From Sphingobacteriaceae bacterium (GTDB lineage Bacteria > Bacteroidota > Bacteroidia > Sphingobacteriales > Sphingobacteriaceae), in NCBI GenBank assembly GCA_017745075.1, contig JAGIAD010000001.1, forward strand, positions 702,876-766,875: 64,000 bases of DNA, given 5' to 3'. The position numbers and the translations under genes were made by a program. The notes under the pieces were generated by a model that saw only the letters and a list, made by a program, of their open reading frames with translations, did not search any database and was not told the origin of the DNA. This document shows positions 15,323 to 26,608 of this stretch, in pieces (the stretch's first letter is position 1; every line of letters starts with the position of its first letter).

Positions 15323-16279
15323 CTAGCCATCAATAGCCCGTATCAAATTCGTTATCAAACGTTTAAACCCGGCATAACGCATTAACCAACGGAAAGAAAC
15401 AATACCCAAAAATGCACAGGTTATTCCAGCCAACACATCAAGCATATAATGATGGCTGGTATAAACAGCCGAAAACCAGATCCCGAGCATTACGGTAAAA
15501 AAGAAAATATTAATTTTCCCTAAGCGGTTTTTCAGACCATAATAAACCACAATAACGGGATATGAGGAGTGCAACGATGGCATGGCGGCAAATACGTTAG
15601 AACCTTTGCTGTATATGCCATGAAAAAGCGTAATGCCAAAATAATGGTCGAAACGGGCCAATCCGGCAGTATTACCAGCTGTTTTGGCAATAAATTCGAA
15701 GCCATGTTCCTGTACATACCATGGCGGCGCGGCCGGGAAAGCATAGTACACCACAAAGCCCAATAAATTTACCCAAACAAAAGTGAGCGAAAACTGAACA
15801 AACTGTTCTTTATTCTTAAAGAAAAGGTATGTAGCAAATGCCAAAGGAACAGGCACCCACATTAAATAGAAAAAACCTGTTAATACATCTAAAAATGCAG
15901 TACTATTGATCTTCCAATACTCATTCGGGGTGAGTATTAGTCCATGATAATGAACACCAAACAACTCTTTTTCAATCGTATACAGATCTTTAATATGCAC
16001 CTGATTAAAAAGATAATTTGGAAAGGCTTTCATATAATCAAACAGTATCCAGTATACGATAAAGATTGAAAAACCAAGGATAAAGCGTCTTGTTCCCTTT
16101 GAGATAAAGAACAAAGTATTAAAGATAAAAATCAGTACCAGCTGATCGGTTTTAAAACCGACCAGTAATACTGATAACAATAGATATCCAACAGATATAG
16201 CAACTGTTAGATAAATATTCCTGATATTATAAAAACTGTCTTTAAGCAATAATTCTTGCTGCATGTTATTTTTTATCAA
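15323..16279 (-). CDS. PAP2_3 / AUR1-like phosphotransferase (candidate inositol-phosphorylceramide synthase)
   Basis: Polytopic membrane protein with PAP2-type motifs PSLHSSYP and SHHYMLDVLAG. It is the last gene of the lipid operon. The start is ATG 16279 or ATG 16264, the latter 1 nt after the upstream stop. Confidence 0.7.
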   Translation of the reverse strand: MIKNNMQQELLLKDSFYNIRNIYLTVAISVGYLLLSVLLVGFKTDQLVLIFIFNTLFFISKGTRRFILGFSIFIVYWILFDYMKAFPNYLFNQVHIKDLYTIEKELFGVHYHGLILTPNEYWKINSTAFLDVLTGFFYLMWVPVPLAFATYLFFKNKEQFVQFSLTFVWVNLLGFVVYYAFPAAPPWYVQEHGFEFIAKTAGNTAGLARFDHYFGITLFHGIYSKGSNVFAAMPSLHSSYPVIVVYYGLKNRLGKINIFFFTVMLGIWFSAVYTSHHYMLDVLAGITCAFLGIVSFRWLMRYAGFKRLITNLIRAIDG

Positions 16280-16886
16280 AATTAGACCTAAAAATATGGT
16301 CCCAAAAAGTCCAGCTTACCCCATAACCTTTAGTCGAATCGGAATAGTGGTGAAGCATATGGTGTTGCTTTAGCCGTTTCCAGAAACCGCTTTTAAAATT
16401 AGCATGGTGAAGTGCATAATGCACCATATCGTAAAACAGGTAACCGATTATGAAGCCCGAGAAAAATGGATAAACCATTGTATCAGGCAACAACCAATCA
16501 AAAAGGAAATAAAACCCCAAAGCCATAGGGATACTGGCCGAGGGTGGCATAACCAATCTTTTGGCATCATTAGGATAATCGTGGTGTACTCCATGAAAAA
16601 TAAAGTGGATTCTTTTGCCCCACTCTACATCCGGTTCAAAATGAAAAACATAACGGTGCAGCACATACTCGGTAATGGTCCAAATACCTAGACCGAGTAA
16701 AAACCATCCCGCAAAATTTAAAACCGGCATTTCGGTTACCCAAAGTGCTTTCCAGAAAAGAAAAACGATAACCGGAACATACACGATCAGCGGTACATAA
16801 AATTGAACTTTTGATAAACTTTCCAAAAAGTCGTTCTTAAACATCCTCATGGATGCGGTTGAATTTGAAACAAAATTCTTTTTCAT
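16266..16886 (-). CDS. Fatty acid hydroxylase / sterol desaturase family membrane di-iron enzyme
   Basis: Histidine boxes HRYVFH, HGVHHDYPND, HYALHH and HHMLHHY. Confidence 0.85.
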   Translation of the reverse strand: MKKNFVSNSTASMRMFKNDFLESLSKVQFYVPLIVYVPVIVFLFWKALWVTEMPVLNFAGWFLLGLGIWTITEYVLHRYVFHFEPDVEWGKRIHFIFHGVHHDYPNDAKRLVMPPSASIPMALGFYFLFDWLLPDTMVYPFFSGFIIGYLFYDMVHYALHHANFKSGFWKRLKQHHMLHHYSDSTKGYGVSWTFWDHIFRSNFDKK

Positions 16887-16899
16887 TTGGTATTTTTTT

Positions 16900-23298: not shown

Positions 23299-24288
23299 TT
23301 ATAACCAATTATTTTTACGGTACCACTTTATGGTTTCGGCAAGGCCCTTTTCCAGTCCGAATTGGGGCGCAAAACCAAAATCGTTCTGAATATTTTTAAT
23401 ATCACAGCCCCAATTAAGGGCGGTGAGTTCTTTTATCTTATCTACATTTAAGGCCGGAATTTTATTAAACACGCCATACAACCTTTCCATTGACCATGCA
23501 AGCCCCTTAATTATTTGCACAGGTACATTCACAATCAATGTTTTTTTGTTTAAAGCTTTACGCACATGGGCAGCCAGCGCAGAACGGTTATAAACCGCCC
23601 CGTCAGATACATTATAGCTTTTACCCACTACATCAGACGCAAGTGCTTTTATAATAATGTCGGCTAAATCAGTGGCGTACACAAAGCTTAATTCCTGCTC
23701 CTGCTTTCCGATATACAGCTCCAGTCCGGCTTTAATGGTTTTAATCAATATGAAAATGTCTTTCTCACGAGGCCCATACACTGCTGTGGGTCTGAATATA
23801 ATTAAGGGCAGATCCGGAATCTGGGCCAGGTAAGTTTCAGCAAGTGCTTTGCTGATTCCATAATTGGTTACCGGATTTGAGGCAGCCTTATCGGTGAGTT
23901 TTTCATTCTTTTGATTTAAAGGTCCCAGCGCAGCCAAACTGCTTACAAATACAAATTTCGTTATACGATGCGCTGATTTTGAAGCTGCCAAAGCCAGGTT
24001 CCGGGTATAAATGGCATTTACCTGGTTGTAATCATCCCGTTTTTTTGCCTTGGTTACTGCAGCCGCATGCACAATGTAATCGTATTTATTTTCTTCTATA
24101 TTTTCTTTCAACAGGTATATCGAAGAAAGATCAAGGTTAACATAGTTGATCGGAAAATCCCTAAGATGCGTTGCAGTGGCTGGTTGACGCACATTTGCAT
24201 ACACTTCAAGATCATTTGCCAAAGCAGATTTTATCAGGTGATAACCCACAAATCCTGTTGCTCCGGTAATCAACACCCGCTTTTTCAT
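23299..24288 (-). CDS. NAD-dependent epimerase/dehydratase family reductase (candidate ceramide/3-ketosphinganine reductase)
   Basis: VLITGATGFVGYHL Rossmann motif and YGISK (YxxxK). Its start overlaps the upstream stop (ATGA). Confidence 0.8.
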   Translation of the reverse strand: MKKRVLITGATGFVGYHLIKSALANDLEVYANVRQPATATHLRDFPINYVNLDLSSIYLLKENIEENKYDYIVHAAAVTKAKKRDDYNQVNAIYTRNLALAASKSAHRITKFVFVSSLAALGPLNQKNEKLTDKAASNPVTNYGISKALAETYLAQIPDLPLIIFRPTAVYGPREKDIFILIKTIKAGLELYIGKQEQELSFVYATDLADIIIKALASDVVGKSYNVSDGAVYNRSALAAHVRKALNKKTLIVNVPVQIIKGLAWSMERLYGVFNKIPALNVDKIKELTALNWGCDIKNIQNDFGFAPQFGLEKGLAETIKWYRKNNWL

Positions 24289-25406
24289 ATCGCTTTTTCT
24301 AAAATCCTGTATTTTCGATATAACTTCCCACCAATATCTTCAATAGGTTTATTAATCAGATCGTTATCGTCTAAAGTCCAGCTGGCCTCTGCATATTTCA
24401 TTTTTCTGGCTTCAAAATGTTTAATGATCCGTCCATATAAACAGGCTTCGATCCCCATTTTACGGTAACCATCAATTACGCCGAGCAATAAAATCCGGAT
24501 GCCATCAATTTTCTTTTTGTTCAATAAAAGCTTGATCAGACCTGTTGGAAACAACCTTCCGCGTTTAATTTTGATCAGAATCTGGTTAATATCGGGTATA
24601 GCCAATGCAAAGCCCACAATCTTACCATGTTGCTCGGCCAGGATACAAAACTCGGGGTCGAGTACCAGCTTGAGGTCATTTGCCGTATAGTCAAACTCTT
24701 TATCCGTCATTGGCACAAAACCAAGATTTTTATCCCATGCCTTGTTATACACCTCTCTTACCGCGTCACATTCTTCCTTGAATTTCTTCATGTTGATTTT
24801 ACGCAGAATGATATCGCTCCTTTTCAAACGCTCCTCTATCCTATCCATCAGCTTCACCGAGCGGTCGTTATAATTGCCAGCGGTATACCGGTAAGCCCTT
24901 AGATCAACATTTTTCTGAAAACCCATTTGTTCCAGAAAAGGCAGATAATACTGTGCATTATATGGCATCATGGCCACCGGCGGACCATCAAAACCTTCAA
25001 TCAGCAAACCACATACTTCGTTGGTAGAAAAGTTAACCGGACCTAAAACTTTGGTCAGTCCCTTTTCTTTTAACCATTCCTGCGCTGCCTCAAAAAGCTG
25101 TTGAGCTGCCGCTACATCATTGATACAATCAAAAAAACCAAAAAAACCATCCTTTGACCCATAGACTTTATTATGGTTGTTATTGTTGATTGCTGCAATA
25201 CGCCCTATTACCTTGCCTTCATCATAAAGCAAAAAGAGCTGTATCTCAGAATGTTCGTAAAAAGGATGTTTACCGGGAGTAAGCAGATCTCGCTGGGCAA
25301 TAAAAAGTTCGGGAACATAGTTTACGTCGCCAGCATACAGTTGGTGAGGAAAATCTACAAAGGCTTTTAATGCTTTTTTACCAGAAACCTTTACCAGTTC
25401 TCTCAT
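24285..25406 (-). CDS. GNAT-fold N-acyltransferase (candidate bacterial ceramide synthase)
   Basis: 373 aa. C-terminal GNAT-like core ([29 protein letters not shown]). It has ATGA overlaps with both neighbouring genes. Confidence 0.6.
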
Positions 25407-26608
25407 GATCTGCTTCCTACTAATTCCAGATTAACAGCCTTAAAAGCTGCACTTAGTTTATCTATTGCCAATTCAATCTGATCGAAAGTATGCGTAGCCA
25501 TTAAAGAAAACCGGATTAAGGAAGCGTCTGATGGCACTGCCGGAGAAACCACCGGATTAACGAAAACCCCGTTCTGCTGAAGGATATTCGTAATCATAAA
25601 GGTTTTGATATTATCGCGGATATAAACGGGAATAATCGGACTGTTGCTGTGCCCGATATCGAAACCGGCATCGAGCAAAAGTTTCTTCGCATACTCTGTA
25701 TTGGCCCAAAGTTTATCAATCCGCTCAGGTTCTGATTCGATAATATCCAATGCAGCAATCACACTTGCCACGGCAGATGGTGGCATACTTGCGCTGAACA
25801 TCAGTGAGCGGGCACGGTGCTTGATATATTCGATGGTTTCGGCACTACCAGCAACAAAACCACCTAACGAAGCCAGCGATTTGCTAAAGGTGCCCATAAT
25901 GAGGTCGACATCTCCGGTCAGATTGAAATGTGATGCCGTTCCAGATCCGTTAAAGCCGATAACGCCAAGGCTATGTGCATCATCCATCATAATGTTGGCA
26001 CCAAACTCATTGGCAATTTCGACCATTTCAGGCAGGTTAACCAGGTCGCCTTCCATGCTGAAAATACCATCCGAAACAATCAGTTTAGCGGCATCTTCAG
26101 GTAACCTGCTTAATTTTCGGCGCAGATCCTGCATATCGTTATGCGCGTATTTAATTGTGCGCGAAAACGCCAAACGGCTTCCATCAATAATAGAGGCATG
26201 ATCGTATTCATCAAGCAACAGATAATCGTTGCGATCCAATAAACAGGATATTACACCTAAGTTGACCTGGAAACCGGTACTAAAAAGCACTGCAGCTTCT
26301 TTGCCCACATATTCGGCCAGGCGATTTTCCAATTCGAGATGTATATCGAGCGAACCGTTTAAAAATCGCGATCCTGCGCAACCGGTTCCATATTTTTCGA
26401 TGGCTGCTTTTGCAGCTTCTTTTATTTTAGGATGACTGGTTAAGCCTAAATAGGAATTTGAACCAAACATGAGTACCTTTTCCCCATTCATAACCACCTC
26501 GGTATCCTGGGCAGATTCTATCGACCTGAAATAAGGATATAATCCCTTTTCTTTTATCACCGCCGCATCCTTAAAAGAGGCAATTCTATCTTGTAATTTT
26601 TTGCGCAT
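25403..26608 (-). CDS. spt: Alpha-oxoamine synthase family, serine palmitoyltransferase-like
   Basis: PLP-lysine motif [20 protein letters not shown] and SNSYLGL. It is the first gene of the lipid operon. Confidence 0.75.

Follow-up and report, generated by a model that had tools for sequence, protein, structure and literature searches.

Work on bacterial sphingolipids rests on genes that lie scattered, as in Bacteroides, or on several operons together with extra acyl carrier protein (ACP) machinery, as in Caulobacter. Can the whole route to an inositol-bearing sphingolipid be carried by a single compact gene cluster, and is such a cluster one operon? These questions are raised by a stretch of 64,000 nt from a Sphingobacteriaceae bacterium (assembly GCA_017745075.1, contig JAGIAD010000001.1, positions 702,876-766,875 of the forward strand; hereafter the window, meaning the whole stretch that was analysed), in which ten open reading frames (ORFs), all on the minus strand, follow one another from position 26608 down to position 15323. 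The closest named genomes are those of Pedobacter zeae and P. vanadiisoli, with 93-99% amino-acid identity across the cluster, and two of the proteins have 100% identical counterparts in a metagenome-assembled genome of the Sphingobacteriaceae. We consider it quite probable that these genes form a conserved operon for the biosynthesis of 2-hydroxy-acyl inositol-phosphoceramide (IPC) in a Pedobacter of the soil type; the genes for ceramide synthesis stand in it directly before those for an inositol head group.

The initial annotation of this DNA, made from the letters alone, had described ten ORFs on one strand, several stop/start overlaps and one repeat-filled gap of 389 nt. The ORF list of the window and a reading of the junctions on the coding strand confirmed this description, and all the motifs that it quoted were found in the translations: GTFSK, GATGFVG, D..DG..AR(8)G...D...D, the His boxes, PSLHS and HHYMLD. 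The members of the cluster, in the direction of reading and with the evidence for each, are as follows.

25403..26608, minus strand: spt, serine palmitoyltransferase (SPT), a pyridoxal phosphate (PLP)-dependent alpha-oxoamine synthase (AOS); NF047600 SerpalmtaseCFB, PDB 3a2b/8guh
24285..25406, minus strand: bCerS-type GNAT N-acyltransferase, predicted bacterial ceramide synthase; weak Pfam Acetyltransf_1, YghO/Sphingomonas homology
23299..24288, minus strand: cerR-type extended short-chain dehydrogenase/reductase (SDR), predicted 3-keto-dihydroceramide reductase; Pfam Epimerase, 127 bits
21955..23280, minus strand: myo-inositol-3-phosphate synthase (MIPS); Pfam NAD_binding_5, 348 bits, and Inos-1-P_synth, 109 bits
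21500..21955, minus strand: PgpA-family phosphatase, predicted phosphatidylinositol phosphate (PIP) phosphatase; Pfam PgpA, 135 bits
21120..21497, minus strand: GtrA-family small membrane protein; Pfam GtrA_DPMS_TM, 65 bits
18576..21119, minus strand: DUF5686 protein, predicted to lie in the outer membrane; Pfam DUF5686, 196 bits, and CarbopepD_reg_2
17276..18565, minus strand: PIP synthase (CDP-alcohol phosphatidyltransferase) fused to DUF4833; NF052561 PIPSynBT1523, and DUF4833, 159 bits
16887..17275, no strand: intergenic palindromic array resembling repetitive extragenic palindromic (REP) elements; repeats, hairpins
16266..16886, minus strand: di-iron fatty-acid 2-hydroxylase (Scs7/FA2H type); Pfam FA_hydroxylase, 67.5 bits
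15323..16279, minus strand: PAP2_3/AUR1-like protein, predicted IPC synthase; Pfam PAP2_3, 91 bits, and NF052609

What would these enzymes make together? We infer the substrates, the order of the steps and the product by analogy with pathways whose logic has been shown experimentally in Bacteroides thetaiotaomicron (PMC9246714, PMC8791184) and Bacteroides fragilis (bioRxiv 10.1101/2023.05.23.541633). Spt would condense serine with acyl-CoA to 3-ketosphinganine, the bCerS-type GNAT would N-acylate this product, and reduction of the 3-keto group by the CerR-type SDR would then yield dihydroceramide; that N-acylation precedes this reduction is taken from the work on Caulobacter and B. fragilis. 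The head-group arm would start from glucose-6-phosphate with MIPS, whose product would be joined to CDP-diacylglycerol by PIP synthase and converted to phosphatidylinositol (PI) by the PgpA-type phosphatase. The AUR1-like PAP2_3 enzyme would move phosphoinositol from PI to ceramide, and the Scs7-like, O2-dependent di-iron enzyme would 2-hydroxylate the N-acyl chain. According to a secondary mention in PMC9246714, Sphingobacterium spiritivorum is reported to contain a lipid of this class, ceramide phosphoryl-myo-inositol. The initial annotation had held that every step to IPC is encoded together here. This stands for SPT and PIP synthase, both of which pass the cut-off of an equivalog model, and the other families could be assigned as well; it stands less firmly for the IPC synthase, whose match remains below the cut-off.

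Gene order and its conservation

The junctions within the cluster are tight. ATGA stop/start overlaps join spt to the GNAT gene (25403-25406) and the GNAT gene to the SDR gene (24285-24288), the stop codon of MIPS and the start codon of pgpA share one base at 21955 (TAG/GTG), and the other gaps measure 18, 2, 0 and 10 nt, in addition to the 389 nt at 16887-17275. With TTG 16279 as the start of the gene for the PAP2_3 protein (pap2), this gene and that for the hydroxylase (fah) share 14 nt. In an independent annotation of an identical public contig the start is set at ATG 16264, which leaves a gap of 1 nt after the end of fah at 16266, and this ATG is likely to be the true start.

The synteny survey that the initial annotation had suggested covered the best 80 MIPS loci from a set in which each GTDB species was represented by one genome; each locus was taken with a flank of ±10 kb, and the window proteins were mapped onto it by tblastn. 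The counts of gene order use the 65 of these 80 loci that have enough flank on both sides. The genes for spt and the GNAT lie directly upstream of MIPS in 56 of the 65, and every feature stands in the order of the window in 25 of the 65. The full order is found in Pedobacter, Nubsella, Mucilaginibacter, Chitinophaga and Chryseosolibacter, which span Sphingobacteriales, Chitinophagales and Cytophagales, and in Pontibacter it is found without the hydroxylase. Not only the order but also the close spacing is kept: the GNAT and SDR genes overlap in 45 of 53 loci, and MIPS and pgpA are no more than 20 nt apart in 54 of 65. In all loci that reach far enough, the inositol module ends with the PAP2_3 gene. 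A chance juxtaposition of the ceramide and inositol modules was considered and rejected, as dozens of species, belonging to three orders, have this arrangement in their genomes.

A different arrangement was observed in metagenome-assembled genomes (MAGs) of Sediminibacterium/Chitinophagaceae (L048, L059, L069-L071, L073, L075, L076 and L079, as well as the contig-truncated L077). These loci keep the series MIPS-PgpA-GtrA-DUF5686-PIPS/DUF4833-PAP2_3, and spt, GNAT, SDR and hydroxylase are missing within 10 kb. Their ceramide genes may lie elsewhere, or their PAP2_3 protein may work with another acceptor.

Enzymes of the ceramide and inositol arms

The first gene of the ceramide arm is assigned by its scores. 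The SPT protein reaches 736 bits with NF047600, the NCBIfam equivalog model of Bacteroidota SPT, for which the cut-off is 640, and in a PDB search it matches the solved SPTs 3a2b/8guh with 612 bits (E 2e-183), as against 250-282 bits for its non-SPT relatives (cysteate-C-fatty acyltransferase 250, KBL 276, BioF-type enzymes and ALAS). The PLP-binding lysine is residue 243, within the GTFSK motif at 239-243. The ORF is thus placed outside the BioF/Kbl clades, in keeping with the SPT-like label that the initial annotation had given it. An identity as a BioF/KBL enzyme or a cysteate acyltransferase was rejected on the same scores. No acpR or aasR gene is present in the cluster, which fits the acyl-CoA-using Spt type of Bacteroidota.

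The second gene found no matching model in NCBIfam, as was also the case for the hydroxylase, and no relative in the PDB search. In a plasmid collection searched by tblastn, the GNAT matches Escherichia coli YghO as a full-length homologue (36.5% identity) and also Streptomyces and other N-acetyltransferases, and in BLASTP it matches an N-acetyltransferase from a Sphingomonas sphingolipid cluster (33% identity, E 8e-62). In E. coli PN43 (NZ_MG591698.1, match at 9001-10122), yghO is accompanied by genes for an acyl-AMP ligase, an epimerase-family reductase, an ACP, an AOS and LptF/G paralogues, and in Sphingomonas parapaucimobilis the GNAT homologue clusters with an NAD(P)H-binding protein, an ACP, an AOS, LptF/G paralogues and a desaturase. 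These neighbourhoods, of which that in E. coli PN43 is of the E. coli B type, are the aasR-cerR-acpR-spt…cerS sphingolipid clusters known from Rhodobacteria and from E. coli B (PMC9386255, PMC11324152).

The third gene encodes an SDR that aligns over its full length with the reductases of the spt clusters of Sphingomonas, E. coli and Streptomyces (27-31% identity, E 1e-29 to 5e-37). It has GATGFVG from residue 9 and a YGISK motif, and neither a signal peptide nor a transmembrane (TM) segment was found in it. On this sequence evidence, the GNAT is predicted to be a bCerS-type ceramide synthase and the SDR a CerR-type 3-keto-dihydroceramide reductase. The initial annotation had proposed both assignments, and they are now backed by full-length homology to the acyltransferase and the reductase of proteobacterial sphingolipid clusters (PMC9386255); the link to genetically characterised proteins runs via the published orthology of the E. 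coli and Sphingomonas clusters. The GNAT family comprises 8037 clusters at 50% identity (E≤1e-3). Among its members are a natural fusion of an SPT-like domain to a bCerS-type GNAT (P0385, 780 aa, metagenomic), the best NCBIfam match of which is NF047600 with 470 bits, and an apparent tandem duplication of the GNAT (P0361, 784 aa). The fusion, like the place of the GNAT gene beside spt, speaks for the assignment as a ceramide synthase.

Could the first three genes serve a lipid other than ceramide? They might make a non-sphingolipid amino lipid, of the capnine/sulfonolipid type or an N-acyl amino-ketone, and be mere neighbours of the inositol module. In favour of this, AOS-GNAT-SDR triads occur in other contexts, for example in a Streptomyces plasmid operon with a condensation-domain gene, and Pedobacter suwonensis has a second GNAT paralogue (P0512), 45% identical to the GNAT of the window, in a genome that also has a copy of the operon (L003). 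We nevertheless find such a role very improbable, as the SPT passes its equivalog cut-off and scores far above the cysteate-C-fatty acyltransferase level with solved SPTs, and as these genes have stayed linked, across three orders, to one for an AUR1-like enzyme and to one for a ceramide-type hydroxylase whose presence follows theirs.

In the inositol arm, MIPS matches the inositol-3-phosphate synthase of PDB 7nwr with an E-value of 3e-170. The PIP synthase part, residues 1-235 of a 429-aa protein, exceeds the cut-off of NF052561, the BT_1523 equivalog model (410 bits, cut-off 350); it has the CDP-alcohol motif D(x)2DG(x)2AR(x)8G(x)3D(x)3D at residue 78, and its best structural matches in Foldseek are the mycobacterial PgsA1 PIP synthases. 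The PgpA-family protein is placed relative to MIPS as BT_1525 is (PMC9246714), and from its sequence it is predicted to be a PIP phosphatase and the counterpart of BT_1525. The GtrA protein is the counterpart of BT_1524, the knockout of which gave no lipid phenotype (PMC9246714).

The two arms would meet at the PAP2_3 protein. It matches yeast AUR1 (PDB 9vj3/9ivc) with an E-value of 8e-20, and its PSLHS and HHYMLD motifs align to PSLHS and HHYFVD of the yeast enzyme; with the catalytic H/H/D motifs aligned, it falls within the PAP2_3/AUR1 group, as had been proposed. It also matches NF052609 (PhinosDhcerSyn, BT_1522 type) with an E-value of 3e-96 over 298 of 305 model positions, at 322 bits for a cut-off of 480. 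The protein is a diverged relative of BT_1522 and not a certified equivalog, and since the score is below the cut-off, its head-group specificity is read from the context.

This score is the first point in favour of an alternative in which the PAP2_3 protein is not an IPC synthase: it may transfer another head group (phosphoethanolamine, phosphoglycerol or phosphomannose) or act as a lipid phosphatase, and the inositol genes may serve PI or another glycoconjugate. Sphingobacterium also makes ceramide phosphoethanolamine and ceramide phosphomannose, and nine loci retain PAP2_3 and the inositol genes without a nearby ceramide module. The best and only specific matches of the protein, however, are IPC synthases (AUR1 and NF052609), and its gene ends the inositol module as it does in B. 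thetaiotaomicron (PMC9246714). We regard the alternative as improbable and keep the prediction of an IPC synthase.

The hydroxylase aligns with yeast Scs7 (PDB 4zr0/4zr1, E 1e-32) at all of the His boxes. It consists of 206 aa, is aligned to Scs7 residues 185-369 only, and has no N-terminal cytochrome b5 domain. By its sequence it is an acyl 2-hydroxylase of the FA2H/Scs7 type, in a comparison with solved structures, among which there is none of a Sur2-type C4-hydroxylase. Of the 56 loci that have the ceramide module, 55 also have the hydroxylase gene, and all nine that lack the module lack this gene as well, a distribution that fits an action on the acyl chain of ceramide.

Transcription and accessory genes

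Is the cluster transcribed as a unit? We infer a single transcription unit from the common strand, the overlaps, the conserved tight junctions and the lack of a terminator-like site in the 389-nt gap. Ahead of spt lie two features that bear on its expression.

26609..27146, no strand: AT-rich divergent intergenic region of 538 nt, presumed promoter region of the operon; sequence, GC 0.33
27147..28043, plus strand: divergent AraC-family regulator; Pfam HTH_18/AraC

An AraC-family gene occupies the same position in Pedobacter and Nubsella loci, and its product is a candidate regulator of the operon. At the low-coordinate end, the cluster is bounded by a convergent gene. No strict TAnnTTTG promoter motif was found upstream of spt on the operon strand, a sigma-70 scan, with a consensus unfit for Bacteroidota promoters, returned 27 sites as compared with 37.5 expected from shuffles, and an Rfam search of 14-28.5 kb of the window gave no credible match.

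The gap at 16887-17275 consists of about 3.5 palindromic units, which start with GTCAT…CTGAG and end with the complement, and it folds into long hairpins that are more stable than those of shuffles (z -3.7). No hairpin followed by a U-tract was found within the gap on the operon strand, and for this reason read-through is most likely. A long junction between PIP synthase and fah, of variable length (178-532 nt), is confined to the Pedobacter clade nearest to the window; in the other 34 measurable loci the junction spans 2-51 nt, which points to a recent insertion of REP-like units into a junction that was ancestrally coupled. Related palindromic units were seen in other intergenic regions: in the window at 28071-28150 and near 48378, and in the close relatives L001-L010 near locus positions 4600-5200 and 16000-16500. 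This Pedobacter clade thus seems to have a dispersed family of REP-like elements. The units also create spurious ORFs, for example at 16887-17135 on the plus strand.

The same pathway might be expressed from two transcription units, if the REP-like array splits fah and pap2 from the eight upstream genes by termination, RNA processing or an internal promoter, with a different expression or regulation of the last two steps as the outcome. Such a split would be suggested by the long stable hairpins, by the lability of the junction in evolution, seen in its range of lengths among close relatives, and by one TAATTTTG motif, of the TAnnTTTG type, at 17163. This lone promoter-like motif is at chance level, however, with 2 in 11.3 kb, the hairpin with a U-tract is missing, and the short junction in all other taxa indicates that co-expression is ancestral. 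Two units seem possible to us but rather unlikely, and the cluster is treated here as one.

Several observations weigh against the reading of the cluster as a single operon for IPC. The scans for promoters and terminators located none with confidence, and transcription might be weakened within the structured gap or start anew from it. An electron donor for the b5-less hydroxylase was not identified, and the PAP2_3 protein, as noted, does not reach the BT_1522-type cut-off. The lack of a signal peptide sets the SDR apart from CerR of Caulobacter, which was reported to be periplasmic (PMC11087976), and the cellular arrangement may differ; location does not necessarily define the family, and Bacteroidota may be free of the puzzle that an NADH-dependent step in the periplasm poses. 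Finally, the SDR between gnat and mips is missing in 10 of the 56 loci with spt and gnat, and the whole ceramide module is missing within 10 kb in 9 of the 65, so that the linkage is common but not obligatory.

Three components of the cluster have no place in the proposed chemistry. The first is the DUF5686 protein, for which tblastn finds a match in 76 of all 80 MIPS loci. Its AlphaFold2 model (pLDDT 66) shows a signal peptide, an NTE/CarboxypepD_reg domain, a beta-rich middle and a C-terminal barrel. The NTE domain matches that of SusC (9hfj, TMt 0.83 in Foldseek), and the barrel matches BamA/Sam50/TamA with a Foldseek probability of 1.0 but a TMt of only 0.4-0.48, the model being weak at 459-580; POTRA domains are not seen in the model, which has the NTE/CarboxypepD_reg domain instead. 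On this model, an outer-membrane protein with an Omp85-like barrel is predicted. It is probably the counterpart of BT_1527, a CarboxypepD_reg-domain protein that Heaver et al. noted beside inositol clusters (PMC9246714), and a DUF5686 protein of Tannerella forsythia is found in the proteome of outer-membrane vesicles (PMC10682907).

The second component, DUF4833, occupies residues ~280-429 of the PIP synthase protein, after an extra TM helix that follows the six-helix synthase core, and on account of this helix it would face the periplasm. It is modelled as beta-rich (pLDDT ~80-87), and a Foldseek search of the PDB found no relative. The fusion with PIP synthase occurs in 39 loci, and in 19 DUF4833 has an ORF of its own next to the synthase gene. 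As the alignments are shallow (67-100% identity), the TM part of the fusion protein and the middle of the DUF5686 barrel are modelled with low confidence.

The third component is GtrA. The initial annotation had counted three genes of unknown role; GtrA now has a counterpart in BT_1524 and DUF5686 probably one in BT_1527. GtrA, DUF5686 and DUF4833 are conserved accessory parts, and the most likely guess is that they help to transport inositol lipids within the envelope or to position them there. The bolder proposal that GtrA, DUF5686 and the DUF4833 domain tethered to PIP synthase amount to a dedicated, lipid-class-specific route of envelope trafficking encoded in the operon is one that we hold to be doubtful.

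The surroundings of the cluster were also inspected. Just past the divergent AraC gene, at 28523-29665 on the minus strand, lies a gene for a beta-propeller phytase (Pfam PF02333, E 1e-44), an enzyme that releases inositol phosphate and here adjoins an inositol-lipid operon; only the six Pedobacter loci nearest to that of the window have it there. Downstream of the cluster, at 9021-12293 on the plus strand, a TonB-dependent receptor (STN, CarboxypepD_reg, Plug) stands beside a FecR-type anti-sigma gene, and between the receptor and the cluster there are genes for a beta-helix protein and for a 366-aa protein without a Pfam match.

Comparison with known systems

The enzyme families, the PIP-intermediate route, the Spt/bCerS/CerR route and the lipid class are known; the new part is the merged, conserved organisation with its accessory members. 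No description of the merged cluster was found in the literature that was searched, the coverage of which was incomplete, so that an earlier description is possible. The survey of Heaver et al. covered Sphingobacterium and found no BT-like cluster there, and Pedobacter, Mucilaginibacter and Chitinophaga were outside it (PMC9246714). For Bacteroidota that produce sphingolipids, the three ceramide genes have been described as not lying near one another (PMC11334938). Neither the published statement that these genes are unlinked in Bacteroidota nor the one that cerS is always in a separate operon holds for environmental Bacteroidota. Public annotation calls the proteins 'hypothetical protein' or 'DUF4833 domain-containing protein', and a function is now predicted for thousands of proteins under these names. 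The compact operon is, in addition, a ready-made unit for heterologous reconstitution, and DUF5686, DUF4833 and GtrA are conserved candidates in the question of how these lipids reach the outer membrane.

How does the cluster compare with systems already described? Spt, a GNAT ceramide synthase and CerR together reportedly make ceramide in Caulobacter, in work of 2022 by Stankeviciute and colleagues. The window has the same three families and the same predicted chemistry as the Spt/bCerS/CerR systems (bCerS: CCNA_01212, CC_1154, BF9343_4218; CerR: CCNA_01222, CC_1164, BF9343_4240), but it lacks AcpR and AasR, and its cerS stands between spt and cerR with ATGA overlaps. The Streptomyces plasmid operon mentioned above (Streptomyces sp. 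NBC_01001, L084, 7757-12283) has AOS, GNAT and epimerase genes that overlap and follow the order of the window, after which comes a condensation-domain gene and not the inositol genes; its product may be ceramide-like or a related amino lipid. With yeast AUR1 and Scs7, the window enzymes share the catalytic motifs (PSLHS/HHY..D and the His boxes) and the predicted reactions at an identity of ~25-37%, whereas a gene for a Kei1 subunit and a b5 domain on the hydroxylase are absent and the enzymes would belong to a bacterial inner membrane. PgsA1 (PDB 6h59, 5d92) has the same CDP-alcohol phosphatidyltransferase fold and motif as the PIP synthase, and the extra TM helix and DUF4833 are found only in the window protein.

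Another close parallel is BT_1522-BT_1526 of B. thetaiotaomicron, in which the same five families (MIPS, PgpA, GtrA, PIP synthase and the AUR1-like enzyme) stand in the same relative order (PMC9246714, PMC8791184), and the PIP-intermediate route is common to both. BT_1527 lies beside that cluster, whereas DUF5686 lies inside the cluster of the window, where DUF4833 is also fused to PIP synthase, an Scs7-type O2-dependent hydroxylase is added, and the IPC synthase has diverged beyond the cut-off of the BT_1522 equivalog. In B. thetaiotaomicron, the SPT gene (BT_0870) is unlinked to BT_1522-1526, as the initial annotation had correctly stated (PMC9246714). In contrast to this gut relative with its scattered genes, the host of the window is an aerobic, free-living bacterium in which spt, bcerS and cerR are joined to the 5′ end of the inositol genes.

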